64,000 bases of DNA from Candidatus Nomurabacteria bacterium. GTDB lineage: Bacteria; Patescibacteriota; Minisyncoccia; Phycocordibacterales; JAACPR01. How positions within the stretch are numbered: position 1 is the first letter of the stretch; each line of letters begins with the position of its first letter. A model generated the notes under the pieces. That model searched no databases. It saw nothing but the letters and a program-made list of their open reading frames with translations, and was not told the origin of the DNA. Of the stretch, positions 47,816 through 61,914 are shown in pieces. The translations under genes and the position numbers were made by a program. The DNA lies in assembly GCA_020632215.1 (NCBI GenBank), contig JACKFZ010000006.1:12574-76573 (forward strand). Direction: 5' to 3'.

Positions 47816-48694
47816 CTATTTCTTACCCAAAAAATCTCTCAGGTATTCTTCAAAATCTTTTTTCAAATCTTCCCTATCAAATGCAAATTCCACAGAAGCC
47901 TTTAGAAAGTTCAATGGATCTCCAGTCGTAAACCAATCCCCTTCTATTTTATGAAAAATAACTTTCTCACTTTTTGCCAATTCAATAATGGCATCTGTTA
48001 GCCACAATTCATTATCTTTACCAACAGCTAAACTTTCTATGATTGGTAATATTTTTGGTGTAAACAAGTATCGGCCACAAGCAGCAAGATTTGATGGTGC
48101 TTCATCAACTTTTGGTTTTTCAACAAAAGTTTCAACTTCATTTGTTGTCCCTTCTTTTATTTTTACAATTCCATATTTACTTGTTTCTTCTTGCGGAATT
48201 TCTCTAACACCAATAACAGCAGCTGCATCTGGATTTTGTTCCAAAGCTAATGCAAGCTGTTTACATACTGGCACTTTCGCTCTTGTAATATCATCTCCAA
48301 AAAGATAAAAGAATGGTCCATCAGAAACTATGTCAGCAGAAATTTTTAAAGGAGTTCCGTTTCCATATGGCATTGATGATTTTTGTCTTAGAAAGATAAA
48401 GTTTGCAAGTTCAGCACTTTTTCTCACTTCTGCTAAAAATTTAGTCTTCCCTGTCTTTTCTAATTGATCTTCAAGCTCAAAATGATCATCAAAATGATTC
48501 TCTGTAATGTGTCCAGTTTGTTTGGTCACAATGATAATATCCTTCACCCCAGAATCTGCTAATTCTTCTACTGAGTATTGAATAATAGGCTTGTCTATTA
48601 TTGGCAGCATTTCTTTTGGTTGGGCTTTGGTTGCAGGCAAAAAACGAGTTCCACTTCCCGCTGCTGTAATAATAGCTTTTTTTGGCATTTGCAT
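47816..48694 (-). CDS. galU: UTP--glucose-1-phosphate uridylyltransferase
   Basis: KAIITAAGSGTRFLPATKAQPKEMLPIIDKPIIQY. Confidence 0.85.
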   Translation of the reverse strand: MQMPKKAIITAAGSGTRFLPATKAQPKEMLPIIDKPIIQYSVEELADSGVKDIIIVTKQTGHITENHFDDHFELEDQLEKTGKTKFLAEVRKSAELANFIFLRQKSSMPYGNGTPLKISADIVSDGPFFYLFGDDITRAKVPVCKQLALALEQNPDAAAVIGVREIPQEETSKYGIVKIKEGTTNEVETFVEKPKVDEAPSNLAACGRYLFTPKILPIIESLAVGKDNELWLTDAIIELAKSEKVIFHKIEGDWFTTGDPLNFLKASVEFAFDREDLKKDFEEYLRDFLGKK

Positions 48695-48804
48695 GGTAAA
48701 AGCGATTCTATATTATTTTCACTAAATTATCTAGTCAGAAAATTTGCGGGCTACCCCGAGCCGGAACCGTATATGCCGTGTTATATGATGTTGTGCTGTT
48801 TTTT

Positions 48805-49494
48805 TCAATCAATAAACCTGAATGTTTTAATTATCCCCAAGTGAGAGTCATCATAATCTTGGAAACTAATTATATAAGATTTATTGGCTCGAGAAATAAA
48901 TATAAAACTTTGGTCAAGTCCTATTGCGGTTGTCATCACTAGTTTATTGCTACTAATACCATTGAGAGTATAGCTTTCTTGGCTAACTATCGAGCCACCA
49001 TAATAAGAAGGATTGTCTTTATACTCTTCGAGAAATTGCTCCAAAGTTTTATCTTCAACAGAAATCACTACTGATCCACCTCCTTCTGGCATTTGTCGCC
49101 ACCCAGGATATGAAATATAAACTTCGCCTTCCTTGTATCCCGTAACTTCCCAGTCGCAAGGATAGTCAACACTATAGCCGAACTCCTCATCGCTGTAAGT
49201 TTTCCAATTACCAGGCGTTACGGATACAGGTGAAGTTTGCTTTTTATCCTCTTCTTCCCGAGTGGCAACAGATTGCTCTTGTTTCATTGCATCCTGTAAT
49301 TCTTTAATTTGATTTTGTAAAGTAGTGATTTCTGTCTGTAACGATTGCTCAGTTTTATTTAGTGAGGTTTTTTGCCAAGCATAAACTGCGCCACCAACAA
49401 CAAGTGCTGTGATTAGTATAAAAGGAACAATCGTTATAATAGTTTTCGAACCAACAACAGGCTCGTTCGGTTGTGGAAGATTTTCGTTGTCCAT
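48805..49494 (-). CDS. hypothetical membrane-anchored protein
   Basis: Transmembrane segment followed by a coiled coil. Confidence 0.4.
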   Translation of the reverse strand: MDNENLPQPNEPVVGSKTIITIVPFILITALVVGGAVYAWQKTSLNKTEQSLQTEITTLQNQIKELQDAMKQEQSVATREEEDKKQTSPVSVTPGNWKTYSDEEFGYSVDYPCDWEVTGYKEGEVYISYPGWRQMPEGGGSVVISVEDKTLEQFLEEYKDNPSYYGGSIVSQESYTLNGISSNKLVMTTAIGLDQSFIFISRANKSYIISFQDYDDSHLGIIKTFRFID

Positions 49495-49651
49495 ATTATT
49501 TTAATTAATTGATTAGATTATAAGTGAAAGAAAAATTCAGCACAACATCATATAAAACAAGTATAAATACAGGTAATCAACCCAAGGTTAAAGAATATCA
49601 AAAGCCCATTATAAAATTGTGATTAGATCACTCCGATACTTTGTTTTTACT

Positions 49652-49845
49652 GCGGTGTTTTTTGAACGAAGTTCGAACATTTTTTGAGCAAAACCTTGAA
49701 AACTAATTTGGACTCGGCGGGGCAAACTATTTTTCTGGGGAAATGGAATTGCCCCGCCTCGGCTTTCTTCCCGCCCGCAGGAGGGGTCTGGGGAGGAATG
49801 CGGGCGGGATTTTGAACCTTTCCTTTTTCGCTTCCGAATTTCGTG
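49652..49845 (-). repeat. copy 1 (inverted) of the ~194-bp GC-rich structured repeat A
   Basis: Reverse complement is identical to 58467..58659 along the portion compared by eye (the ~130-bp core). Contains two long GC hairpins (tcccgcccgca...tgcgggcggga and gaggcggggcaa...ttgccccgcc). The track ORF 49647..49868 is most likely not coding. Confidence 0.8.
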
Positions 49846-49868
49846 CCAGTTGAAAACTGGCGCGCCAC

Positions 49869-50459
49869 CTAATAATACTTCAATTTTGAATAATGCAATT
49901 TGTCGTGTGCTTCAAACAATATCTTGATCGCTTTTTTTGCATTTTTTTCTATTTCATTTTGTAAAACACTTGATTCAGTCCACATAAACGCATTTTTTAT
50001 TGAATCTTTAAATTGCGGTCTCGTTCCTTTTTTGTCTGTTGTGTTTTCTTTGCTTATCCCGTGAACAAATTCATTCCTTAAATCAAAAAGCGTCACTAAT
50101 TTTTCAAATAAATCTTGATCAATAATTTTCTTGTTTTTTGCGGCTTCTAAAATTTTCCATCCAGTTTTTGTTTTCGCCGTTTCTTCATCAACTGGATTTT
50201 GATATGGCAAATCAAGCAATTTTGCAAGTTGTCGCTCTATTGTTACGGCGCACATTATAATACTTGCCACAAAATCGCCCACCAAAAAGGCGTGGCGCGC
50301 TTCTTCAAAGCAGGAATGAACATCGGGAGAAGAAAGATAGTCTTCATTTTCTGGGTTGTAATTGTCCAAAAGAAAACGCAAGCGCTCTTTTACCTCTTTT
50401 TCGTTACTCCGGATATAATCTTTCCAATACTGATCAATTTGTGTTTGGGTGTAGTGCAT
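49869..50459 (-). CDS. HEPN-motif protein (putative RNase) co-operonic with type I R-M
   Basis: R-x4-H signature RNEFVHG at residues ~129-135 of 196. Start codon lies 3 nt after the hsdR stop. No other domain recognised. Confidence 0.45.
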   Translation of the reverse strand: MHYTQTQIDQYWKDYIRSNEKEVKERLRFLLDNYNPENEDYLSSPDVHSCFEEARHAFLVGDFVASIIMCAVTIERQLAKLLDLPYQNPVDEETAKTKTGWKILEAAKNKKIIDQDLFEKLVTLFDLRNEFVHGISKENTTDKKGTRPQFKDSIKNAFMWTESSVLQNEIEKNAKKAIKILFEAHDKLHYSKLKYY

Positions 50460-50461
50460 AA

Positions 50462-53400
50462 TTAGATATCGGTGTATTTTTTAAAATTTTCCGCTTGCTC
50501 AAATATTTCTTTAAACACCTCATCTTTTGGCACAGGAGGATAGCCATTTTTATCAAGCGTAAGAATTAAATCAACTTTCAATTCGGCTTTGATATTATCT
50601 CTAGCTGACCAATCTGTGTATCTGGCTTTATCGTCGACAATTTTTTTAATCTCTTGCGACAATATAATCAATTTATCTTCGGGATATTCAAATTTATATT
50701 TTTCAGCAACTGCCTTCAAAATATCGTAAAAGGCTTTTTCTTCAAAATCTATCCCTAACCCTTCAAAAGATTTTCTTTCTTCTTGTAGTTGCTTGAATAG
50801 ATCAGCAAATTTATCTGCCACATCATCCAAAACATGACTTTGAAATACGTCAAAATCTTTTCGTTCGTTATAAAGTTCAATAAGTTTTTTTAGTTTCTTT
50901 GAAAAATCAACACCTTTAATTCGGTTTGTCTTCTTAAACTCATTAATAGCTTTTGCTAAAAGTTTTTGTAATAGTTTGATTTTCGTGTTTGGCAATTTAA
51001 TTTTTTCAATTTTTGCCAAATATTCATCACTAAAAATATCTGCGTTATTTTCCGGTTTGTTTTTATCAAGTTTAAATATTTCTTCTACTCCTTCACTAAT
51101 CAATGCTTCTTGTATCATCTGACGCACTTTTTCATTCATTTGTGCGGTATCCGGCGCATCTCCCTTGGTTAGTTTGTGAATAATTGATTTAATGGCAAAA
51201 TAAAAATGAATATAGTCTCGTTCAATCTGCGAAATTTTCTCACTTGCACAACAAAGATCATAAGCAGACCGCAACTTCTTCGTTATAGACATGAAGCGAT
51301 TCTCTAAATCAGCCGTAACTTGAACAAATTCAGCTGACCGATTCAAGCAATTCAATTTTTCCAAAGGAGAACCCTCAAAAAAAGGCTTGGTATCAAATCC
51401 ATGAAATAATTTTGAAAGCAAGTCGAGTTGATCTTTCACAATCCCCACCGCTTTATCTGCATCTGCAAAATCATCGCCATGCACCTTACTATATTTTGCA
51501 AGAGCAATATTCATGTTGCTTTTTATTCCAATATAATCAACTACCAAGCCAACTTCTTTACCTTCATAAACACGATTGACGCGAGAAATTGTTTGAATTA
51601 GTGAATGTTGTTGAACAGGTTTGTCAATATAAATCGCCTCCAAAAAAGGCACATCAAAACCAGTAAGCCACATATCAACGACAATAGCGATTTTGAAATT
51701 TGATTTTGCATTTTTGAACTGGCGATCAAGCTCTTTTCTATCTTCTTTTGTCCCTAGCATGTCATACAGCGCTTTTTCATCATCCTTATTGCGAGTCATC
51801 ACCATTTTAATCTTCTCAATTGGCTTGATTTCTCGCTTTTCCTCTGTAGTGAGTTTTGCGCCTTCCTCGCATGCTTTAATTTCCCCCCATTCTGGTCTAA
51901 GTGAAATCACTTCTTTATAAAAATCGTAAGCAATCGGTCGGCTAGAGCAGACGAACATAACTTTACCTTTGACGCTTGCTCCTTCCTCAATTCGCTTTTC
52001 ATAATGTTCAACAAAATCTGTCGCTAAAAGTTTCAATCTCTTTGGATCACCCAAAATAACTTCCATCTGCGCTACAGCTTTTTTGCTTTCTTCTATTTGA
52101 TATTCATTTGCTCCTTCTTCTGCGCATTTGGCATAGTACTCTTCAATTTCCTTCAATTTAGCCTCATTTAATAGAACCTTCGCTGCTCGTCCTTCATAAA
52201 CAATTCTCACGGTAATTTCATCTTCTACCGATTCTTTCATTGTGTAGGCGTCGGCAACTTCACCAAAAACAGACAATGTGCCGTCAATCGGCGTACCGGT
52301 TACGCCAACATAAGTCGCATTTGGCAAAGAATCATGGAGGTATTTTGCAAACCCATATTTAACTTCCACACCCTTATCGGTAACCTTTAATTTTTGATCA
52401 AGATTTATCTGTGTTCGGTGTGCCTCATCGGAAATACAAATAACATTTGGCCTATCAGTCAAAAGCTCCGTATCTTCAGTAAATTTTTGAATCGTTGTAA
52501 GGTATACACCACCACCTTTGATACCTTGTAAGTGTTTTCGCAAATCAGCACGACTTTCAACGCTCAAAATCTTTTCTTCATTGATAAAGTTTTTGGCATT
52601 GGTAAATTGCTCAGACAATTGATCGTCCAAATCGGTTCTATCGGTAATGAGTACAATTGTCGGGCTAGATAATTCAACGCTCTTCATCAAGAGGCGTGAT
52701 AAATACAACATCGCAAAACTTTTACCCGATCCAGTCGCTCCAAAATATGTTCCACCTTTTCCGCTTCCGGTTGGCTTCATGTTCACCTTTATGCTTTCAT
52801 AGAGCTTTCGAGCGGCGTAATATTGCGGATAACGACAAACGATTTTTGCTTCGCTTTTTGAAGTGTCGGGGAAGTAGATAAAATTATGAATAACATCAAG
52901 TAGCCTGTTTTTGTCAAACAATCCTTTAATCAAGGTATAGAGTGAATCAATACCCTCACTTGGTTCATCAGTATTATTTACTTTTCTCCACGCGTAGAAA
53001 AAATCATAAGGTGAGAACAAAGACCCCATTTTGTTATTCACGCCATCGCTTATGACGCAAAAAGCGTTGTATTTCAGAAGTTCAGGAATATCTCGGCGAT
53101 AACGAACGGTCAATTGAGTATAGGCGTCTTTAATCGTGCAATTTTCTTTGACGGCACTTTTGAATTCAAAAACCACCAAAGGCAAGCCGTTTATATACAC
53201 GATTCCATCAGGAATTCTTTTTTCAGTTCCTTGAATTTCTAATTGATTAACAATTTTGAATATGTTATTCGAAGCAGTTTCAAAATCCAAGAGTTCAATA
53301 TAAATATCTTTTTGACTGCGATCTTCTCTTTTGAGAGTAAAGCCGTCAGCAATCAAACGAATAATATCCCTGTTGCTTTCATACAGCGCCGAGCTTGGAT

Positions 53401-53608
53401 AGAGATCGAGTTTTCGCAAAATTGAATCAATTTCATTTTGCGTTATACCAACACCCGCATATCTATTTTGAAGAAACGCACGCAAATCGTCACGCAGCAA
53501 AACATCACTCATTTCTTTGTGAATGGTTTCTCCGTGATGGTGCGGGATATCCACTTCTCCAAAAAGTTCTATAACCGCTTGTTCTAATGTTTCTTCAGTA
53601 AATTTCAT
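50462..53608 (-). CDS. hsdR: type I restriction enzyme R subunit
   Basis: Walker A GATGSGKS, DEAH box ISDEAHR, helicase motifs, length 1048 aa. Confidence 0.85.
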   Translation of the reverse strand: MKFTEETLEQAVIELFGEVDIPHHHGETIHKEMSDVLLRDDLRAFLQNRYAGVGITQNEIDSILRKLDLYPSSALYESNRDIIRLIADGFTLKREDRSQKDIYIELLDFETASNNIFKIVNQLEIQGTEKRIPDGIVYINGLPLVVFEFKSAVKENCTIKDAYTQLTVRYRRDIPELLKYNAFCVISDGVNNKMGSLFSPYDFFYAWRKVNNTDEPSEGIDSLYTLIKGLFDKNRLLDVIHNFIYFPDTSKSEAKIVCRYPQYYAARKLYESIKVNMKPTGSGKGGTYFGATGSGKSFAMLYLSRLLMKSVELSSPTIVLITDRTDLDDQLSEQFTNAKNFINEEKILSVESRADLRKHLQGIKGGGVYLTTIQKFTEDTELLTDRPNVICISDEAHRTQINLDQKLKVTDKGVEVKYGFAKYLHDSLPNATYVGVTGTPIDGTLSVFGEVADAYTMKESVEDEITVRIVYEGRAAKVLLNEAKLKEIEEYYAKCAEEGANEYQIEESKKAVAQMEVILGDPKRLKLLATDFVEHYEKRIEEGASVKGKVMFVCSSRPIAYDFYKEVISLRPEWGEIKACEEGAKLTTEEKREIKPIEKIKMVMTRNKDDEKALYDMLGTKEDRKELDRQFKNAKSNFKIAIVVDMWLTGFDVPFLEAIYIDKPVQQHSLIQTISRVNRVYEGKEVGLVVDYIGIKSNMNIALAKYSKVHGDDFADADKAVGIVKDQLDLLSKLFHGFDTKPFFEGSPLEKLNCLNRSAEFVQVTADLENRFMSITKKLRSAYDLCCASEKISQIERDYIHFYFAIKSIIHKLTKGDAPDTAQMNEKVRQMIQEALISEGVEEIFKLDKNKPENNADIFSDEYLAKIEKIKLPNTKIKLLQKLLAKAINEFKKTNRIKGVDFSKKLKKLIELYNERKDFDVFQSHVLDDVADKFADLFKQLQEERKSFEGLGIDFEEKAFYDILKAVAEKYKFEYPEDKLIILSQEIKKIVDDKARYTDWSARDNIKAELKVDLILTLDKNGYPPVPKDEVFKEIFEQAENFKKYTDI

Positions 53609-53610
53609 AA

Positions 53611-54741
53611 TTATTTAGTCGTTAAAGTATCAACCACTCCTTTCATCAAAACCGGACACAAAGGTGTAATCATATTTTTTAAATCTTCATTGAGTTTTTT
53701 TCTTGATTCCAAAACATAATGAATGGCAACAATTGATTTTTGCACTTCAATATCGGGTATTGGCAATCTTACTTCGCACATATCCTCCCAGTTAAATGTT
53801 TCTCTAGCACTACCCCAAGAATGAAAACGCGCGTATCTATCAAAATCAGAACGAGTGAACCAAAGATAAAGAAATTCAGGCAATAATTCTTCTTTTTTTG
53901 TAATCTCAAAAACGGGATAAATTTTTGAAACGATAAAATCTTCTTCTGTATTTAATGAAATTGGAATTCTTTCTCCCATTCTCGCCGTATTAGGGTTGAA
54001 TACAAATTGACCAACTTTCAAAAGTTTATAGCCAGAAAGTTCTACATCAGTCATGTTAGCTTTTGGCTTTATCAAAATTTTATGGATTGATACACCTCTT
54101 ACTTTACTAAGGGGCAAACCATAATTTTCGTATTCAGATTGCTGAATATAATCACCCAACCTCTTCAAGTCTTTTTTCTTTGCCAAATCTTCAATAAAAG
54201 TATCACAAATCAATTGCAAATCATCCAGACTGCTCTCATAACATTTCTGATTGCGAAGTAGTTCGTTATAAACCGCCACAACATTTTTTTGAACCCCGAT
54301 ATCATCTGGAATTGGTATCTCAATTTCACAAAATCGCTCCCATTCCAAACCACCCCTAACACTGCTATCACTAACATACCAAGAATATCTATCAAATTCC
54401 GGTTTTTGGAAAATCATCATTAGATATTCGGGAAGTAGCTTATTCGAATCTAAAACTTCAAAAGTAATATATGCAGGAGAAACAAGCGCAGGTTTATCCT
54501 CTGAATATAAAGATATCGGCAATCTTTCATCTCTGCCAACGTGCATAATGTTGCAAGCAAATCTATCTTTTCTAACTATTTTGTATTTTGATAAATCAAG
54601 ATCGGTTTGATTTGCCACCGACGGCATATAATTCTTGGTGATATTGATACCCAAAAGATTGCTTATCTCTAAGTTCTTGTTTCGCTCGTCTACGAGTTGA
54701 ATATAATCGCCAAGTTTTTTATAATTCAATTTCATAGCCAA
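53611..54741 (-). CDS. hsdS: type I restriction-modification specificity subunit
   Basis: Two target-recognition half-domains of similar length, separated by a conserved helical spacer. Sits between hsdM and hsdR. Confidence 0.8.
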   Translation of the reverse strand: MAMKLNYKKLGDYIQLVDERNKNLEISNLLGINITKNYMPSVANQTDLDLSKYKIVRKDRFACNIMHVGRDERLPISLYSEDKPALVSPAYITFEVLDSNKLLPEYLMMIFQKPEFDRYSWYVSDSSVRGGLEWERFCEIEIPIPDDIGVQKNVVAVYNELLRNQKCYESSLDDLQLICDTFIEDLAKKKDLKRLGDYIQQSEYENYGLPLSKVRGVSIHKILIKPKANMTDVELSGYKLLKVGQFVFNPNTARMGERIPISLNTEEDFIVSKIYPVFEITKKEELLPEFLYLWFTRSDFDRYARFHSWGSARETFNWEDMCEVRLPIPDIEVQKSIVAIHYVLESRKKLNEDLKNMITPLCPVLMKGVVDTLTTK

Positions 54742-56299
54742 GATGTTTAAATGCCTCCATTAGTTTTTCTTGCGAATCCTTTTCCTCTGCAAGAATATTG
54801 GTGAATTGTTTTTGAATCCGCTTCATTTCTTTGTCGTAGTTAATTTTGCTATCACGATCAACAAATTCAATGTATTTGCTCGGAATGAGCGACCAATTAT
54901 TTTTCTCAATTTCTTCGATGTTTGCGCTATAGCAAAACTCCGGAATATTTTTGTAGCTTTTTTCAAAACCCTCTCTCTGCCAGTTGTGATATGTAGAGAC
55001 TACCTCTTGGATATCGGCATCAGTGAGCTGAATATACTTTTTTTCGTATTCTTCACCTTTTCGGCGTAAATCCATAAACAATATCTCATCTTGTCTGTTG
55101 CGGTATTTCACCATTGCACCATTATGTTCAATGCTTCTAGCTTGCTTGTTTTTATTAAGAATCCAGAGCGTAACACTAATATCCGTGCTATAGAACATAT
55201 CTCGTGGCAAAACGATAATTGCTTCTACAAGGTGATTTTTGATAAACTGTTTTCTTATTGCAACCGTGTCAGGATCTCCAAGTGCGCCATTGGCAAGCAA
55301 AAATCCGGCTACTCCATTTGAGGAAAGCTTGGATGCCATATGTAAAATCCAGCCATAATTTGCATTACTAACCGGAGGCACATCATATCCCGCCCATCGC
55401 GGATCAGTGGTGAGTTCATTTGCACCTCGCCAATCCTTTTGATTGAATGGCGGATTTGCCATTATAAAATCTGCTTTGAGATCTTTGTGTTGATCTTTGC
55501 CAAAAGTATCAGCGGCGGTTTCTCCCAAATTTGAAGAGATGCCACGAATAGCCAAGTTCATTTTTGCCAGTTTGTATGTAGTCGGAATACTTTCTTGTCC
55601 GTAAATCGCAACTTCTTTGGTGTTTCCGTGATGCGCTTCAATAAATTTTATTGATTGCACAAACATACCGCCGGAACCACAGCAAGGATCATAGATTTTA
55701 CCTTTGTATGGCTCAATAAGTTCAGCAATCAGATTGACTATATTTTTGGGAGTATAAAATTCACCTTTACCTTTTCCTTCTGCGATCGCAAACTTTCTCA
55801 AAAAATATTCGTAAATTCTGCCGATAATATCGTGGGACTTATCTTTGAGTGTATCAATTTTGTGAATTTCATCTAATAAGGCTCCGAGTTTTGTAGTATC
55901 AAGATTTAATCGTGAATAGTAGTTATCTGGCAAAGCGCCTTTGAGTGCAGGATTCTTTTTTTCTACAGTAAATAATGCCGTATCTATTTTTATTGAAATA
56001 TCACTTTGTTTGGCGTTTTTTATCAAATAACTCCATCTTGATTCTTCGGGGAGATAAAACACGTTTTTCATCGTGTAAAAATCCACCATCTCCAGATATT
56101 TTTCTTTACCCTCGGCGATAAGTTCATTTCTTCGTTCCTCAAATTTATCACTGGCAAATTTTAAAAATATCAAGCCGAGCACAACGTGCTTGTATTCAGA
56201 AGGCTCAACAGTTCCCCGAAGTTTATTGGCAGATTCCCAAAGAGATTCTTCAATACTCTTCTGCTTCTTTTCTTTTTTAGGTTTAGTAGTTCTTGTCAT
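54719..56299 (-). CDS. hsdM: type I restriction-modification N6-adenine DNA methyltransferase subunit
   Basis: N-terminal HsdM_N (LWESANKLRG), SAM motif I DPCCGSGGMF, and motif IV FIMANPPFN. Confidence 0.85.
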   Translation of the reverse strand: MTRTTKPKKEKKQKSIEESLWESANKLRGTVEPSEYKHVVLGLIFLKFASDKFEERRNELIAEGKEKYLEMVDFYTMKNVFYLPEESRWSYLIKNAKQSDISIKIDTALFTVEKKNPALKGALPDNYYSRLNLDTTKLGALLDEIHKIDTLKDKSHDIIGRIYEYFLRKFAIAEGKGKGEFYTPKNIVNLIAELIEPYKGKIYDPCCGSGGMFVQSIKFIEAHHGNTKEVAIYGQESIPTTYKLAKMNLAIRGISSNLGETAADTFGKDQHKDLKADFIMANPPFNQKDWRGANELTTDPRWAGYDVPPVSNANYGWILHMASKLSSNGVAGFLLANGALGDPDTVAIRKQFIKNHLVEAIIVLPRDMFYSTDISVTLWILNKNKQARSIEHNGAMVKYRNRQDEILFMDLRRKGEEYEKKYIQLTDADIQEVVSTYHNWQREGFEKSYKNIPEFCYSANIEEIEKNNWSLIPSKYIEFVDRDSKINYDKEMKRIQKQFTNILAEEKDSQEKLMEAFKHLGYEIEL

Positions 56300-56301
56300 A
56301 C

Positions 56302-58068
56302 TTATATTTTATTAAATGCCTTTCTTATAACTCCCGCCATGAGTTTTCTTCTTTCTTGGAGGAATGTATCATATTCAAGCTGATAAAAATTTTCTGGAAT
56401 AGCGTGCTCTGCCAGCATTTCTTTAATTTCGCTCTCGCCGAACCTTTTTTGCACCATTGCAAAATATTCGCTTGGTTTGTCGTCGCTGATTTCGATATTA
56501 TCTTCAAATTCCAAAAATGTCAGATTGGCAATCTGGTTTATTTTTGCCTTGTCTTTGTTCTTATCAAATCCATATTTTGAAATGAGATAATTTCGTGGGA
56601 ATATGTGATGTTTTTCCAAACGCTTCTTTTTAATCTTTAAAGACGGATCATAAAGATCGCCTACAAGTTTGCGAGAAAATAAAACTGGCGAGCCGAGCTT
56701 GTTGAGCGCGGCATAAAAAGCATTTGCCTCTGGGCTTCTTGCTGATGATGTTTCCATTTGCCCGACAAGCGTAATATCCCAAAAATCATTGGTTAAATTC
56801 TCACCAATTATCTTTTCAAGTCCGCTGATAAATCCGTCGTGGCTAAACTCTTTTATTCTGTTTAGATCCTTTTCAAAGGCGGTTTCTGGTGAAGAAGAAT
56901 ATCTACCTGTCAGAGAAGACATCACGAACCAGCGCCCGATAATTCTTTGCAATTCGTGATTTTGCGTATTGAAATTTTGTTTTCCAATAAGATAAAGAAT
57001 ATAGCTATACAAAACGGCATTTTTTGACGATATAAGTTCTTCATCTTTATATCCGCCACCAATAAGAATTTTCAGAAAACTTTGCCAATTCGTATTATCA
57101 AGGATAGTCGGCAAATTTAATTTCAATTTATCAAATTGATGCGTTCGCAATTCTTCTGAAAATTCTCCTGTTTCCATATCGCGTCCGCGAATAATGGAGT
57201 AGACATCTTTCATTTTTGCTCGGTGGAATGTCAGACCAACTAAAACGCGAAGCATATCGTCCGGATCGGGCTTTATCAAATAATTGAAAGACGAAAAACG
57301 AGTTTCTTTTTCTGGAATTTTTCTTGAATCAATACAAAACTGCTCAATTTCTTTCCTGCCCTCTTCCCAATAGACGGAAAGTAAAGTCAAAATGAAATCA
57401 GCTTGCGTCAAACTCACCCCTTGACTGTTTATGCGAACAAAAATATCCGAGACAATTTCTTCCTCTAAATTCGGGGCAATTTCAAGAGCCGTGAGAGGAT
57501 ATTTATTGATGTTTATAAGCGATTGAATGTTTGAGGAAATTGTCTTTTCCTCTTCCTTTGTGATTTCTCTTTTTTCTTTAAGTGCCGAAATGAAATTGCT
57601 AATGATAGCAAAATCACCCTCGCCAGACCAAAGAGCTGAAAGGTCGGGAATATATTCGGGGTCGCGATCGGTCGCCGCGTCGCCGACTTTGAAAAGTGCG
57701 TCTATTGGGCGAAAAGCAATTTTGATAGCTTTGCTTTCATAATCAGGGGTCAAAACTTCCTGATTTTTCATAACGGCAAAAAGAGCCGTCAATCTTTGCT
57801 GTCCGTCAATTATCAAAAATCTCGGAATTTTCCTTTTCTTCTCATCAAAGCCAATATTTTTATAATCACTGCGATTGGCATTTTCCCAGAAAAGCAAATA
57901 TCCGATTGGATAACCACGATATATTGAATCAAATAAATCTCTAACTTTTGAGATTTTTTTATACCAAACGAACGGGCGTTGAATGTCTGGCAAAGCAATA
58001 TCGCCAATTTCAATATCGTCCATTAGTTTTCCAATCGTATAATCTGTTGTTTTGAATACTTGTGCCAT
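56302..58068 (-). CDS. GmrSD-like type IV restriction endonuclease (DUF262 + DUF1524)
   Basis: N-terminal DUF262 with DGQQRLTAL and C-terminal His-Me finger EKHHIFPRNY...ANLTFLEFEDN. Confidence 0.7.
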   Translation of the reverse strand: MAQVFKTTDYTIGKLMDDIEIGDIALPDIQRPFVWYKKISKVRDLFDSIYRGYPIGYLLFWENANRSDYKNIGFDEKKRKIPRFLIIDGQQRLTALFAVMKNQEVLTPDYESKAIKIAFRPIDALFKVGDAATDRDPEYIPDLSALWSGEGDFAIISNFISALKEKREITKEEEKTISSNIQSLININKYPLTALEIAPNLEEEIVSDIFVRINSQGVSLTQADFILTLLSVYWEEGRKEIEQFCIDSRKIPEKETRFSSFNYLIKPDPDDMLRVLVGLTFHRAKMKDVYSIIRGRDMETGEFSEELRTHQFDKLKLNLPTILDNTNWQSFLKILIGGGYKDEELISSKNAVLYSYILYLIGKQNFNTQNHELQRIIGRWFVMSSLTGRYSSSPETAFEKDLNRIKEFSHDGFISGLEKIIGENLTNDFWDITLVGQMETSSARSPEANAFYAALNKLGSPVLFSRKLVGDLYDPSLKIKKKRLEKHHIFPRNYLISKYGFDKNKDKAKINQIANLTFLEFEDNIEISDDKPSEYFAMVQKRFGESEIKEMLAEHAIPENFYQLEYDTFLQERRKLMAGVIRKAFNKI

Positions 58069-58072
58069 ATTT

Positions 58073-58282
58073 TTATTTCATTAAATCATCAAGCGAAACG
58101 CCAAGAGCATCCGCAATTTTTTTAACTGTTTCAATGGTGGGGTTGGGAGTAGAGCCAGCTTCAATTTTGGCAATCGTATGAAAAGCCAAATCCGCCTTTT
58201 TTGAAAGCTGATCCTGCGAAATGCCGAGCTTGTTTCGGTATTTCTTTATATTGTCTGCGATTGTGGATTTTTCCTTTGACAT
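58073..58282 (-). CDS. XRE-family helix-turn-helix transcriptional regulator
   Basis: NIKKYRNKLGISQDQLSKKADLAFHTIAKIEAG. First gene of the operon, with a 4-nt gap to the GmrSD-like gene. Confidence 0.7.
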   Translation of the reverse strand: MSKEKSTIADNIKKYRNKLGISQDQLSKKADLAFHTIAKIEAGSTPNPTIETVKKIADALGVSLDDLMK

Positions 58283-58466
58283 ATTCGTATAGTTTTACTA
58301 TTATAGTTGTATAGTATTAAAAATATCACTTATCAATAGTTAGTATATGAAATTTTTAGCATTTAGTCAAAGAAAAATTTTAGGGAGTTCCTTAGTGTTG
58401 CCCGCGAATGGGTTGGGTGGGTCAAGGGCAACATCTTCTTTGGCGGCGCATTTTACTTTGCAAAAT

Positions 58467-58659
58467 ACGAAATTCGGAAGCGAAAAAGGAAAGGTTCAAA
58501 ATCCCGCCCGCATTCCTCCCCAGACCCCTCCTGCGGGCGGGAAGAAAGCCGAGGCGGGGCAATTCCATTTCCCCAGAAAAATAGTTTGCCCCGCCGAGTC
58601 CAAATTAGTTTTCAAGGTTTTGCTCAAAAAATGTTCGAACTTCGTTCAAAAAACACCGC
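58467..58659 (+). repeat. copy 2 (direct) of GC-rich structured repeat A
   Basis: Inverted repeat of 49652..49845. The track ORF 58347..58916 runs through it. Confidence 0.8.
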
Positions 58660-58789
58660 CAATTTTCACTTTTTGTGAAATCGTAAGAAACAGCCTCGGC
58701 GCAAAGCGCCTCGGCATGGTATTTTTCCGCAATTTTGAAGGCATTTTTGAAATCCAAAACCAAAGTGCGGTCGGCAATGCGGAAGTTCG
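58656..58789 (-). repeat. repeat B: inverted duplicate of the last ~134 bp of the serine recombinase gene
   Basis: Reverse complement equals 60273..60406. Ends in the hexamer ccgcca, which is the 3' end of tRNA-Ser. Confidence 0.8.
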
Positions 58790-58903
58790 CAGAGCGAAGC
58801 TCTGGCAAAATGAAATTTTGCAAACCAATCTTTTTTCTTTCGCCTTTGGCGAAAGGTTGAGCGTATTTTTCTTTGATTGCCCAAAAACTAACTATCAAAA
58901 AAT

Positions 58904-60634
58904 ATGGACAACATAAATTTACAAACCAAAAAGATTTTTCTCTATGCCCGTAAATCCACGGACGAACCCGAAAGGCAGGTTTTGAGTATTGAGGCGCAAA
59001 TGTTTGAATTGCGAGAATATGCCAAAAAAGAGGGATTGAATATCGTCCGTGAATTTGTGGAAAGCAAAACCGCCAAAGAGCCGGGCAGAGAGATTTTTAA
59101 TGAAATGGTTGCAAGCATAGAGAAAAATGAAGCCGAAGGAATTTTAGCGTGGCACCCCGATAGATTGGCGAGAAATAGCATAGACGGCGGAAGAATAATT
59201 TATCTAGTAGATACTGGTAAAATAACCACGCTAAAATTTCCCACTTTTTGGTTTGATCCGACACCGCAGGGAAAATTTATGTTATCAATCGCTTTTGGGC
59301 AATCAAAATATTATGTGGATAATCTTTCGGAAAATATAAGGAGGGGTATTCGCCAGAAATTGCGAAATGGAATATGGCCCGCTTGGGCGCCACTCGGATA
59401 TTTGAACGACAAAAATCAGAGAAAAATTGTGGTTGATAAGGAAAAAGCAAAATATATAAAGCGGGCTTTTGAAATGTATGCAACTGGCGAATACCCCCTC
59501 TCTCAAATCCGAAAGATTATCAATTCCTTGGGCTTGGTTGGCAAGAAAGGCAAAATGCTTTCCGTCTCCAATTACCAATATATGCTCAAGAACAAAATCT
59601 ATTACGGCGTGATTGAATACAATGGCGAATTGTATGACGGAAAGCACGAACCGATTATCACAAAGAAACTTTTTGATTCCGTTCAAGAAGTGATGATGAA
59701 TAAAAGCAAACCGAAAACGCCAAAATTGAAACCTTATGTGTATAGAGGATTTTTCCGTTGCGGAGAGTGCGGTTGCTTCATCACTACCGAAACCCAAAAA
59801 GGTCACAACTATTTGCGATGTACCAAGCGGAAAAATCCTTGCCAGCAAAAATATGTCCGCGAAGAAATCATCACTTCTCAAATAAAAAAAGAAATCAAAA
59901 AAGTTTCTTTGTCTTCCGCTTGGGCAAACGCTTCAATCAATTATTTTGAAAACGAAAAAATGAAAATTGCCCAAGCGGAAAGCTCTTTCGCCCAAAAAGC
60001 GAGAAATGAGCTGGTAGAAATAGAAACGAAACTTGATCGCTTGCTTGATTTACAGTTAGACGGCAATTTGTCGCAAGCGGAATATACCGCTAAAAAACAA
60101 AAGATCATTCTCGCTAAAAAAGATTTGGAAGAAAAAATCTCGTCTTTTGGGCGAAAGAGCAATAATCGGTTCGAACTTGCCATTGCCTTTCTAAAAGACG
60201 CCAACCAAGCCGAAAAATACGCTCAACAAGAAAATCCCGAAAGGATTCGGGATTTTCTCAAAAAGATTGGTTCGAACTTCCGCATTGCCGACCGCACTTT
60301 GGTTTTGGATTTCAAAAATGCCTTCAAAATTGCGGAAAAATACCATGCCGAGGCGCTTTGCGCCGAGGCTGTTTCTTACGATTTCACAAAAAGTGAAAAT
60401 TGGCGGAGAGTTAGGGATTCGAACCCTAGAAGGGCTATAAACCCTTACCTCGTTAGCAGTGAGGCGCTTTCGACCACTCAGCCAACTCTCCAAGTAGAGC
60501 AAAATGTAACATATTTTATTCTTTTTTTCTATCTCCATTTATATGCTATATTCTTTTATGGAAAAAACGCCCATGACAACAAGAGAGACCCTTCAAGGAC
60601 TCCCGTCCTTCGAATACTTGGTGGGTCTAGTTAG
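58904..60634 (+). CDS. large serine recombinase (resolvase/invertase N-domain, recombinase domain, zinc ribbon, coiled coil)
   Basis: Catalytic YARKSTDEPERQ...SIEAQ, zinc ribbon CGECGC...C, and a long coiled coil. The frame stays open through the antisense tRNA-Ser, so the true C-terminus is uncertain. Confidence 0.7.
   Translation: MDNINLQTKKIFLYARKSTDEPERQVLSIEAQMFELREYAKKEGLNIVREFVESKTAKEPGREIFNEMVASIEKNEAEGILAWHPDRLARNSIDGGRIIYLVDTGKITTLKFPTFWFDPTPQGKFMLSIAFGQSKYYVDNLSENIRRGIRQKLRNGIWPAWAPLGYLNDKNQRKIVVDKEKAKYIKRAFEMYATGEYPLSQIRKIINSLGLVGKKGKMLSVSNYQYMLKNKIYYGVIEYNGELYDGKHEPIITKKLFDSVQEVMMNKSKPKTPKLKPYVYRGFFRCGECGCFITTETQKGHNYLRCTKRKNPCQQKYVREEIITSQIKKEIKKVSLSSAWANASINYFENEKMKIAQAESSFAQKARNELVEIETKLDRLLDLQLDGNLSQAEYTAKKQKIILAKKDLEEKISSFGRKSNNRFELAIAFLKDANQAEKYAQQENPERIRDFLKKIGSNFRIADRTLVLDFKNAFKIAEKYHAEALCAEAVSYDFTKSENWRRVRDSNPRRAINPYLVSSEALSTTQPTLQVEQNVTYFILFFYLHLYAIFFYGKNAHDNKRDPSRTPVLRILGGSS
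60273..60406 (+). repeat. repeat B' (recombinase 3' coding end)
   Basis: Inverted partner of 58656..58789. Its right boundary coincides with the 3' end of tRNA-Ser. Confidence 0.8.
60401..60490 (-). tRNA. tRNA-Ser (anticodon GCU) with encoded CCA
   Basis: Reverse complement reads ggagagt...anticodon loop cTGCTAa...a long variable arm...T-arm GGTTCGAATCC...actctcc-g-cca. Confidence 0.75.
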
Positions 60635-60989
60635 CGAAGCTGAGAATAGGATCATGCAAGCAAGTGGCCTTTTTGGTCCATACTTTCTTCACAACTTTGA
60701 TCTGGTGGAGCGAAAATCTTTCGTATCCCAATTCCCAGTTCATCGCAGACCCCAAAACGGAGATGTCATTACAATAAATTCATTTTTATTGTGTGGATCA
60801 TCCGACATGTTGGTTTCTTCCAAGATAGTATTCTTCGCGAAAGTCTTGAGGAGAAAATCCAATGGTAAGATGGAAAGAGTTTGGTTGTTCCGACAAGATT
60901 ACGAGGCTATCCCCAAGCAAGCCAGAGCATTCGATCGGAGACTTCTCTTTTCCATTAGAAAAAAAGCTTATGAACTCTCAACCCCGTGA
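60543..60989 (+). CDS. hypothetical protein
   Basis: ORF with locally higher GC. No motif recognised. Confidence 0.3.
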   Translation: MLYSFMEKTPMTTRETLQGLPSFEYLVGLVSEAENRIMQASGLFGPYFLHNFDLVERKSFVSQFPVHRRPQNGDVITINSFLLCGSSDMLVSSKIVFFAKVLRRKSNGKMERVWLFRQDYEAIPKQARAFDRRLLFSIRKKAYELSTP

Positions 60990-61028
60990 TCAGTCAAGAT
61001 AAAATCAAATCGCGGGAAATCTTTTTGT

Positions 61029-61319
61029 TTAATCTCTAAAGTGATTTGAGTCTTTAACTATGTTATACAGAGAAAGCAGTGGTGATAAATCTTTTTTCTC
61101 TTCTAACCTCTTTTTTAAATTATCAATTTTTTCCTCAGTCAGAAAACCCATACACTGACTATCAGTAATGTTTATCTCTTCTAGCAAATGAACAATCTCT
61201 TCATCAGATAATCTAGGTTTTAAATCTATTAGAATCCTTCCACTAGAAACACTCACTCTATACTTTTTCTCTTCTGCTTGTTCAAATTGTCCTCCTTTCA
61301 TAAAGTTATTTTTTGACAA
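61029..61319 (-). CDS. hypothetical small protein; downstream partner of an overlapping gene pair
   Basis: ORF. Its start overlaps the stop of the 61306..61914 ORF by 14 nt. Confidence 0.4.
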   Translation of the reverse strand: MSKNNFMKGGQFEQAEEKKYRVSVSSGRILIDLKPRLSDEEIVHLLEEINITDSQCMGFLTEEKIDNLKKRLEEKKDLSPLLSLYNIVKDSNHFRD

Positions 61320-61914
61320 ATTTAATATTATTAACTAGAAGTGTAGCATAAAATTCATTATGATCACCTTTCTCTATAAACGACCTTAATTTTTGAATCA
61401 ACTCTTTATCTATTAGATCAGATAGACCAGACTCTTTCTTTTGTGTACTTTCTAATATATTTAGAATATCTGTTTCACTTTTATCTTCACCCCCAATAAT
61501 ATAAAAATTTAGACCTTCTCTTTTAGCTTCCTTTAGTTCTTCAGGATCAACTGATGCAAGGTATATCCTTAATTTATCAACGACTCCACGCCAATATGAT
61601 AGAACTCCTGAACCTAACTTTTTTAAAAAATCTCCGTGCACTTTTTCAAATGACTCGATGTCGTCTATGAGTTCAGTAATATGGTCACACTTATTATATT
61701 TTCTAACTATACTCATATCCCCATACCTGATGTGTTTAGGCTTTATTAAAGGAGTTGTAAGATTTTTATCTACCACACCTTCTTCAATCAATTCTAGTTT
61801 TTCGTTAAATTCCCTAGCAGTATTATTTATACGTTCGGCTTGCCTGTATTCCTCTTCAGTTACTCTAACAAACTGATCGTCATCATTATACTCTGGCAAT
61901 ATACTTTCCCTCAT
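61306..61914 (-). CDS. hypothetical protein; upstream partner of an overlapping gene pair
   Basis: ORF of 202 aa with no recognisable family. Divergent from recG. Confidence 0.4.
   Translation of the reverse strand: MRESILPEYNDDDQFVRVTEEEYRQAERINNTAREFNEKLELIEEGVVDKNLTTPLIKPKHIRYGDMSIVRKYNKCDHITELIDDIESFEKVHGDFLKKLGSGVLSYWRGVVDKLRIYLASVDPEELKEAKREGLNFYIIGGEDKSETDILNILESTQKKESGLSDLIDKELIQKLRSFIEKGDHNEFYATLLVNNIKFVKK

Follow-up and report, generated by a model that had tools for sequence, protein, structure and literature searches.

In a 64,000-nt stretch of DNA from Candidatus Nomurabacteria bacterium (contig JACKFZ010000006.1, positions 12,574 to 76,573; hereafter the window, meaning the whole stretch), we found a six-gene operon in which genes for an XRE-family regulator, a GmrSD-like type IV restriction enzyme and a type I restriction-modification (R-M) system are followed by a gene for a small protein of 196 amino acids with a predicted HEPN fold. 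The arginine and histidine of the R-x4-H motif of this protein are the only invariant residues among its aligned distant relatives, and its homologues are encoded directly behind three unrelated kinds of ATP-dependent R-M systems. We propose, with about as much confidence as doubt, that the operon stacks three anti-phage layers, in which the HEPN protein is a second-line abortive effector coupled to R-M. The operon is the cargo of an integrated mobile element with a serine recombinase at a tRNA-Ser gene. This context, which is the most novel part of the locus, was missed by the original prediction, an earlier reading of the same DNA made from the sequence alone.

The last gene of the operon encodes a HEPN-like protein

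The last gene (49869-50459, minus strand) starts 2 nt after the hsdR stop codon, and its stand-alone product, a DUF4145-like predicted RNase, contains a single R-x4-H motif at residues 128-133 (R128-NEFV-H133). No match above threshold was found for this protein in Pfam, PADLOC or NCBIfam. Its sub-threshold matches are to HepT-like, DUF4145 and RiboL-PSP-HEPN families and all fall over residues 53-140; the match to Pfam DUF4145 (PF13643) scores 12.4 bits (E = 0.17), with a gathering threshold of 23.1. Profile searches of PDB sequences with two alignments (A1 and A2) gave chance matches only, or none. The AlphaFold2 (AF2) model, with a predicted local distance difference test score (pLDDT) of 81, is all-alpha and has the four-helix core of a HEPN fold. 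Its structural matches include MNT-HEPN toxins, Csx1 and Csm6, with the HepT toxin structures 5yep and 7ae2, and also 8xdj (HepT/MNT), among the best; MtlR, YggD and the HEPN domain of sacsin are found among the matches as well.

The close homologues form a compact family of 41 proteins, found down to E 1e-23, which are 188-196 amino acids long and 37-98% identical; among their sources, only a Candidatus Dojkabacteria metagenome-assembled genome (MAG) is named. An exhaustive profile search over 1.8 billion cluster representatives yielded 196 relatives of the HEPN protein. The 67 of these that were aligned share 18-35% identity with the query, except for one (P0018) with 68%. R128 and H133 are the only invariant columns of this alignment, with E53, G61 and E75 nearly invariant. 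Among the 67 relatives, 10 match HEPN, 7 match HepT-like and 23 match DUF4145 families (best 1.2e-8), and it is because of these 23 matches to PF13643 that we call the protein DUF4145-like, although it falls below the Pfam threshold itself. Judged by its sequence and its model, the protein is thus a divergent DUF4145-like HEPN protein with an apparently intact catalytic dyad, and not a DUF4145 member by the Pfam threshold. The original prediction, which had recognised nothing but the HEPN motif in this gene product, is supported by the AF2 model, by the families of the relatives and by the invariance of R128 and H133. A metal-independent endoribonuclease activity is predicted for the protein.

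HEPN genes are linked to R-M systems of different kinds

The neighbourhoods of HEPN homologues, the comparison of which had been proposed as a check on the original prediction, were collected from 53 distinct homologue-bearing contigs, 51 of which are informative, and neighbours were annotated by BLASTP against reference R-M proteins from the window and three loci. An R-M gene lies immediately upstream of the HEPN gene, in the same orientation and with a gap of 2-6 nt or an overlap of 4 nt, in 44 of the 51 informative contigs. The HEPN gene is located behind HsdR in 9 contigs, in addition to the window itself, behind a type III Res in 19, behind a large MmeI/Eco57I-like methylase in 12, and behind a distant methylase in one. 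Where the contig reaches far enough upstream of the large methylase (L005, L050 and L051), the methylase gene is preceded by an HKD(PLD)-SNF2 helicase gene. In three loci (L053, L054 and L055), more distant HEPN homologues with 35-38% identity separate type III mod from res and overlap each of the two genes by 4 nt. The linkage of HEPN to R-M is also seen in loci without the 'a' repeats of the mobile element described below (e.g. L005, L006 and L010), which indicates that the HEPN gene tracks R-M and not the mobile element.

Proposed role of the HEPN protein

In the proposed scheme, the GmrSD type IV enzyme would act on modified DNA and the type I R-M system (HsdM, HsdS and HsdR) on unmodified DNA, and the small stand-alone DUF4145-like HEPN ribonuclease would form a further layer. 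The HEPN gene would be translationally coupled to the last R-M gene, and the HEPN protein would be produced together with the restriction enzymes but stay silent in healthy cells. If an infection is not stopped at the DNA level, the HEPN protein, probably acting as a dimer, would cut cellular and/or phage RNA via R128/H133 and thereby cause translation arrest.

A back-up RNase for failed restriction is the most economical reading of the locus, and it has already been proposed (PMC3710099, PMC12839542). In the work of Anantharaman et al. (2013, PMC3710099), 16 or more HEPN clades were connected with R-M operons, DUF4145 was entered as 'in operon with R-M', and PrrC was put forward as an analogue. 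In a 2026 survey of BREX (PMC12839542), stand-alone HEPN genes were described as back-up effectors in BREX and BREX-related loci, and the RNase activity and abortive defence of a DUF4145 HEPN protein have been shown by experiment for RAZR (PMC13017515). Thus the arrangement, which the original prediction did not know from the literature, has been described before, and the novelty of a HEPN gene behind R-M was overstated; the locus is an un-modelled, unusually clean and minimal case of a known association. What is new here is a minimal and promiscuous HEPN module, without ATPase, zinc finger or antitoxin, which is fixed behind three R-M architectures.

Like the R-M-linked HEPN proteins (PMC3710099) and the BREX back-up effectors (PMC12839542), the protein has a HEPN motif of the Rx4-6H type and is encoded inside or at the end of R-M-like operons, for which a suicidal second line of defence has been predicted. 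One of the partner systems found here, which consists of an HKD-helicase and a large methylase, also resembles the 'type-2 BR' systems (PMC12839542). Unlike the known R-M-linked HEPN proteins, however, this protein lies below every curated threshold, is unfused, and keeps a fixed terminal position behind three R-M types.

The likeness to PrrC and RloC pointed out in the original prediction holds only in part. PrrC, the EcoprrI-associated anticodon nuclease, is embedded in a type I hsd locus, and here the gene of a predicted HEPN nuclease adjoins hsdR in such a locus; like PrrC and RloC, it may provide an RNase layer behind restriction. Two differences stated at the outset were confirmed: PrrC and RloC carry an N-terminal ABC/Rad50-like ATPase, whereas the 196-residue protein has no ATPase match in Pfam, NCBIfam or PADLOC, and prrC lies between hsdS and hsdR, whereas the HEPN gene lies after hsdR. 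What does not hold is the tie to hsdR itself. Relatives with 90% identity follow type III Res, and since HEPN genes of this family are found beside several R-M types, the protein is unlikely to make a masking contact that is specific to the type I complex. Likewise, because HEPN proteins that are 90% identical to each other partner with either HsdR or Res, we consider it unlikely that one particular R subunit is held in an inhibitory contact of the PrrC kind. Coupling via co-expression together with a generic signal of infection or R-M failure is more likely.

Several observations weigh against a HEPN effector coupled to R-M. In a Foldseek search of the PDB, HEPN families ranked first, but with weak E-values (>=0.065), and no match was found at E <= 0.001. 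Seven of the 51 informative loci (L008, L009, L015, L016, L037, L043 and L028) have no recognisable R-M gene adjacent to the HEPN gene, the methylase of L028 being 2.5 kb away. The HEPN protein behind HsdR in the window is 90% identical to the one behind Res in L001, which speaks against direct guarding of one R-M complex, and nucleotide homology between these two loci begins 5 nt upstream of the HEPN start codon; the module therefore seems to be swapped as a unit rather than to co-evolve with one partner. Moreover, Res genes 86-93% identical to the HEPN-linked ones are located directly at a cassette arm without a HEPN gene (L091 and L160), and no HEPN homologue was found in 118 genome loci with the same cassette arms, among the matches listed. 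These results suggest that the HEPN module is optional and that R-M does not need it. In L036 and L039-L046, the HEPN homologues that follow type III Res are either interrupted or shortened, with ~110-157 of the 196 residues matched, which could be due to decay of the module or to an alternative C-terminus. Furthermore, the protein lacks both a sensor and an ATPase domain, its gene is not accompanied by a conserved antitoxin-like neighbour, and the operon has no MNT or NTP_transf_2 gene. How a catalytically intact, constitutively co-expressed protein stays harmless is thus unexplained.

Alternatively, the HEPN protein may be an autonomous sensor-effector like RAZR, triggered by a phage protein or nucleic acid, whose R-M neighbourhood reflects co-travel on cassettes and no functional dependence. 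Highly identical HEPN proteins are freely combined with R-M partners of different types, some homologues are found alone or beside non-R-M genes (L008, L009 and L015), and the HEPN gene forms, together with the 'a' arm, a block conserved at 94% across cassettes with different R-M cargo. In addition, single-gene DUF4145 HEPN defences are known, such as RAZR (PMC13017515) and Ishtar (bioRxiv 10.64898/2026.07.06.735840). We nevertheless consider an autonomous sensor unlikely, if well worth keeping in mind. RAZR (PD-T7-4) combines a zinc finger with a DUF4145 HEPN domain in a single gene and is activated by assembly on phage ring proteins (PMC13017515), whereas the protein studied here has neither the zinc finger nor any other recognisable sensor domain and is operon-coupled to R-M. 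The placement of its gene, always co-oriented and within 2-6 nt or a 4-nt overlap of the R-M gene in 44 of the 51 loci, is too tight for loose clustering in a defence island, and the distant relatives are even inserted between mod and res. That the protein is a toxin which stabilises the mobile cassette by post-segregational killing or addiction, and is neutralised by the XRE protein or by an R-M subunit, seems quite unlikely. Toxin-antitoxin systems include many small HEPN proteins as their toxins, HepT structures (5yep and 7ae2) are among the top structural matches, and the gene lies on a mobile cassette beside its terminal repeat. However, apart from its small size the protein differs from HepT of the type VII HepT/MNT systems: neither an MNT gene nor another conserved small antitoxin gene is adjacent, the HepT model (NF047751) gives 14.7 bits against a cut-off of 60, and the tyrosine of Rx4HxY is missing (RNEFVHGI). 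The XRE gene is absent from two hsdMSR-HEPN loci (L006 and L007), and a toxin that stabilises the cassette is hard to reconcile with the 118 same-arm genome loci, none of which has the HEPN gene among the matches listed.

We give less weight to the remaining two explanations. A regulatory RNase that processes the operon mRNA, and sets the ratio of methylase to restriction enzyme or their timing on entry to a new host, would suit a gene placed at the end of a long polycistronic unit that sits on a mobile cassette, since R-M needs establishment control. It would also suit the linkage of HEPN to the R-M operon as such and not to a single type of enzyme. We hold it to be very unlikely: an XRE/C-protein-like regulator is already present in the operon, and the same R-M genes form cassettes without HEPN (L091 and L160). 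To our knowledge, there is no precedent for HEPN RNases in R-M autoregulation. Finally, the presence of MtlR, YggD and the sacsin HEPN domain among the structural matches might suggest a non-catalytic binder of nucleic acid or nucleotide, like MtlR and sacsin HEPN. This we find scarcely credible, because such domains typically lose Rx4-6H (PMC3710099), whereas R and H are the only invariant positions over the 67 distant relatives.

The HEPN module provides a clean natural experiment, in which a minimal predicted RNase of 196 residues, lacking sensor and ATPase domains, occurs with three mechanistically different ATP-dependent R-M systems, and matched cassettes without HEPN are available. The 2013 prediction that HEPN RNases serve as a back-up for restriction thus becomes directly testable with a very small protein, and a sharper question is raised, namely how the HEPN protein is kept silent without an antitoxin.

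The six genes of the operon and their exchange

The six open reading frames (ORFs), all on the minus strand, were found at exactly the coordinates given by the original prediction, and the gaps between them are 4, 2, 2 and 2 nt. The overlap of hsdM with hsdS measures 23 nt if the TTG start is taken, or 17 nt if translation begins at the ATG two codons further in. The first gene (58073-58282) encodes the XRE-family HTH regulator (69 aa; HTH_3 3.2e-17, PADLOC Control_protein 3.4e-11). The second (56302-58068) encodes the GmrSD-like type IV, modification-dependent restriction enzyme (588 aa; GmrSD_N 1.6e-31, PADLOC HEC-05 2.6e-40), which has the two-domain organisation of GmrSD, with a GmrSD_N match of 110 bits, a borderline GmrSD_C match of 23.3 bits (cut-off 23), DGQQR at residue 88 and HH..N at residue 487. 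HsdM (54719-56299; 526 aa) matches HsdM_N and N6_Mtase (2.2e-97) and has NPPF at residue 282. HsdS (53611-54741; 376 aa) matches PADLOC Specificity_I (2.2e-105) and Methylase_S (2.4e-9). HsdR (50462-53608; 1048 aa) contains HSDR_N, SWI2_SNF2, T1R_D3-like and T1RH-like_C domains, with a PADLOC REase_I match of E=0 and DEAH at residue 394. A type I R-M system is therefore present, with all three subunits and their characteristic domains in one locus. The family assignments made at first for these five proteins agree with their strong family matches, and the motifs quoted then (NPPF, DEAH, DGQQR, HH..N and R-x4-H) are all in place.

The operon is preceded by a promoter/leader region (58283-58466, minus strand), which is 91-99% conserved in related cassettes and has two sigma-70-like sites upstream of the XRE gene, at 58370-58342 and 58329-58300 of the minus strand, each with 10/12 matches. 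A promoter-like or terminator-like site was looked for at the junction of hsdR and the HEPN gene and none was found, the 2-nt junction leaving no room for one. Since good promoter-like sites in the right orientation occur only upstream of the XRE gene and none occurs at this junction, and given the close spacing, we strongly infer that all six genes are co-transcribed. The same six-gene operon is found in independent metagenome contigs with 89-97% nucleotide identity (L012, 89%; L017, 97%; and L026), and this recurrence indicates that the arrangement is not a chance pattern.

Comparison of the related operons also shows exchange of their parts. Between L017 and the window, HsdS is 82% identical and every other protein is 100% identical, and between L025 and the window, HsdS is 100% identical, HsdR 96% and HEPN 70%. 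HsdS thus looks to be swapped independently of the rest of the operon, in a manner resembling recombinational exchange of specificity between strains. In L010, L011 and L027, a GmrSD with 97% protein identity to that of the window heads an operon of type III mod, res and HEPN, without hsdMSR. To judge from these three loci, the R-M core between GmrSD and HEPN is exchanged as a block.

The XRE gene was originally taken as the regulator of the operon, and its family was confirmed. However, in at least 21 of a set of 30 cassettes bounded by repeats, the arm proximal to the recombinase is adjoined by an XRE homologue (41-94% identical), and the cargo of this set includes many non-R-M genes. The gene thus looks like the conserved first gene of the mobile cassette and its own regulator rather than a dedicated R-M control protein, and its product probably autoregulates the cassette promoter.

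A serine-recombinase element at the 3' end of tRNA-Ser

The element that carries the operon spans ~10.75 kb, from 49652 to 60406, and is bounded by two pairs of inverted repeats. The proximal copy of repeat 'a' (58467-58659; 193 nt) contains two GC-rich hairpins (58503-58543 and 58553-58595) and forms a 100% inverted repeat with the distal copy a' (49652-49844), which lies 24 nt downstream of the HEPN stop codon and the outer end of which is the left boundary of the element. Repeat 'b' (58656-58789; 134 nt) repeats the 3' end of the recombinase gene in inverted orientation and forms a 100% inverted repeat with b' (60273-60406), which encodes approximately the last 44 conserved residues of the recombinase and the outer end of which, GCGG (60403-60406), is the right boundary. 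Repeats 'a' and 'b' abut with a 4-nt overlap (CCGC). The large serine recombinase (58904-60634, plus strand) has Resolvase (1.8e-20), Recombinase (1.2e-16) and Zn_ribbon_recom (8.7e-8) domains, and its best NCBIfam matches, CcrB and XisF, are far below their cut-offs. On the opposite strand, the tRNA-Ser(GCU) gene (60401-60491, minus strand; found by ARAGORN, Rfam tRNA 55.6 bits) overlaps the end of b' with its 3' end, CCGCCA, from which we take this 3' end as the integration target. A 4-nt core, GCGG/CCGC, is common to the junctions host|a', a|b and b'|tRNA (49652, 58656 in reverse complement, and 60403), and it is this shared core that sets the limits of the element at 49652-60406.

The circular junction, with b' joined to a', is predicted to read ...GAAAATTGGCGGTGTTTTTTGAACG..., and the empty integration site ...GGGTTCGAATCCCTAACTCTCCGCAGTAAAAACAAAG.... 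Neither the empty site nor the circular junction was recovered; the contigs that have the identical PsbP-like neighbour gene all begin inside repeat 'a'. In the integrated form, the recombinase ORF runs ~76 codons past repeat b' through the antisense strand of tRNA-Ser(GCU). Joining the two ends of the element would give a recombinase with a 16-residue tail and a normal stop codon (...SENWRCFLNEVRTFFEQNLEN*), followed by the 'a' hairpins. Thus, the integrated and the joined forms may encode different C-termini of the recombinase.

Repeat 'a' is conserved at 94-100% among close relatives, whereas the cargo shows 84-94%. In the copies compared, the outer end of repeat 'a' runs on past ...AAAAAACACCG(C) into ten different sequences, namely repeat b and nine other flanks. 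The second 'a' hairpin shows compensatory changes at one pair (A-U in 37, G-C in 9 and U-A in 1), and the 3' flank of the HEPN gene folds with z = -4.1. Over 48500-61500, Rfam at E <= 1 gave only the tRNA, the 'a' hairpins matching no known RNA family. No consistent direct repeat was found beside the arms when target-site duplications like those of a DDE transposon were looked for; only the CG/CCGC core is common. The repeats could serve as recombination half-sites, as a means of keeping the recombinase gene intact in both the free and the integrated state, or as homology arms for cassette exchange.

An origin of the inverted repeats as an assembly artefact was rejected, because the same double-repeat layout is present in dozens of independent assemblies. 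Two ORFs, of 73 aa (49647-49868, minus strand) and 189 aa (58347-58916, plus strand), were likewise rejected as genes: they are translations of the two 'a' copies, and their products share a long identical peptide from this repeat. In L001 and L003, the same type III R-M/HEPN cassette adjoins one and the same host flank (LMWPc, VanW and PspC) but faces opposite ways. Either the cassette has truly been inverted across the 193-bp repeat or the assemblies are ambiguous here, since a perfect repeat of 193 bp is beyond short-read assemblers and many contigs break inside it; we therefore do not claim phase-variable inversion.

In having a Resolvase + Recombinase + zinc-ribbon recombinase at its edge, the element resembles SCCmec with Ccr, Tn4451 with TnpX, Tn5397 with TndX, and phages with such integrases. 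Like integrative elements of large serine recombinases in general, it carries accessory cargo and appears to have integrated into a conserved gene, here a tRNA gene, at a specific short core within its 3' end. Unlike them, its recombinase is bracketed by near-perfect inverted repeats of 120-140 bp which include its own 3' coding end, and its cargo is bracketed by a second inverted-repeat pair of ~190 bp with conserved hairpins. Among the serine-recombinase elements described so far, we know of none that has two such pairs of inverted repeats, and no description of such an element was found in the literature searched.

Distribution and cargo of the element

The 41-nt GC-rich stretch of the first 'a' hairpin (CCCGCCCGCATTCCTCCCCAGACCCCTCCTGCGGGCGGGAA) has exact matches in at least 118 GTDB contigs (loci L056-L173), most of which are from Patescibacteria of many classes and the rest from MAGs that bear the labels of other phyla. 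Among IMG/VR viral contigs, no match to the stretch was found. Inverted pairs of this stretch, 1.4-4.6 kb apart, are present in 30 loci, among the matches listed. Between the arms, the cargo is diverse and R-M-rich, including Eco57I/N6-methylases, HincII, AccI, EcoRI, Mrr, D12 methylase and type III systems, together with transporters, an aminotransferase, a glyoxalase and further genes; among the matches listed, it contains no transposase.

Exact copies of the hairpin are also found in MAGs labelled Gammaproteobacteria, Bdellovibrionales, Bacteroidetes, Ignavibacteria, Deltaproteobacteria, Sericytochromatia or Pacearchaeota (L062, L065, L066, L071, L073, L089, L091, L099, L102, L108-L110, L115, L121, L122 and L125). 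These contigs could be due to contamination of bins by DNA of the candidate phyla radiation (CPR), or to transfer beyond Patescibacteria.

It is possible, in our estimate at somewhat less than even chances, that these loci represent an element class, not found described, that is spread across many lineages of Patescibacteria. It would consist of an insertion sequence (IS)-like recombinase module with near-perfect inverted repeats of 120-140 bp at tRNA 3' ends and an XRE-led cassette with two-hairpin inverted repeats of ~190 bp, and would act as an exchange platform which moves R-M and accessory genes among bacteria with reduced genomes, in this case along with an R-M-coupled HEPN RNase. Patescibacteria have tiny genomes and, as far as we know, few described mobile elements. 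If true, such an R-M-rich system of serine recombinases and inverted-repeat cassettes would help to explain the spread of defence and methylation specificities among these bacteria, and its recombinases and sites may be of interest to genome engineers.

The order tRNA, recombinase, XRE and cargo is the same in every checked locus that holds the recombinase, and the conserved layout can be written as tRNA, b', recombinase (transcribed toward b'), b, a, XRE and cargo (transcribed toward a'), a' and host. Recombinase homologues with 36-95% identity are located just outside the XRE-side arm and transcribed away from it in ~35 of the 118 loci, among the matches listed. Of 20 related loci that were scanned, 13 have a tRNA gene, mostly tRNA-Ser but also tRNA-Ala or tRNA-Leu, adjoining the recombinase gene at its 3' end. 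In four loci with divergent recombinases (L072, L096, L103 and L130; 44-60% identical), the recombinase gene is also bracketed by inverted repeats of 120-140 nt with 95-100% identity, ~1401 nt apart.

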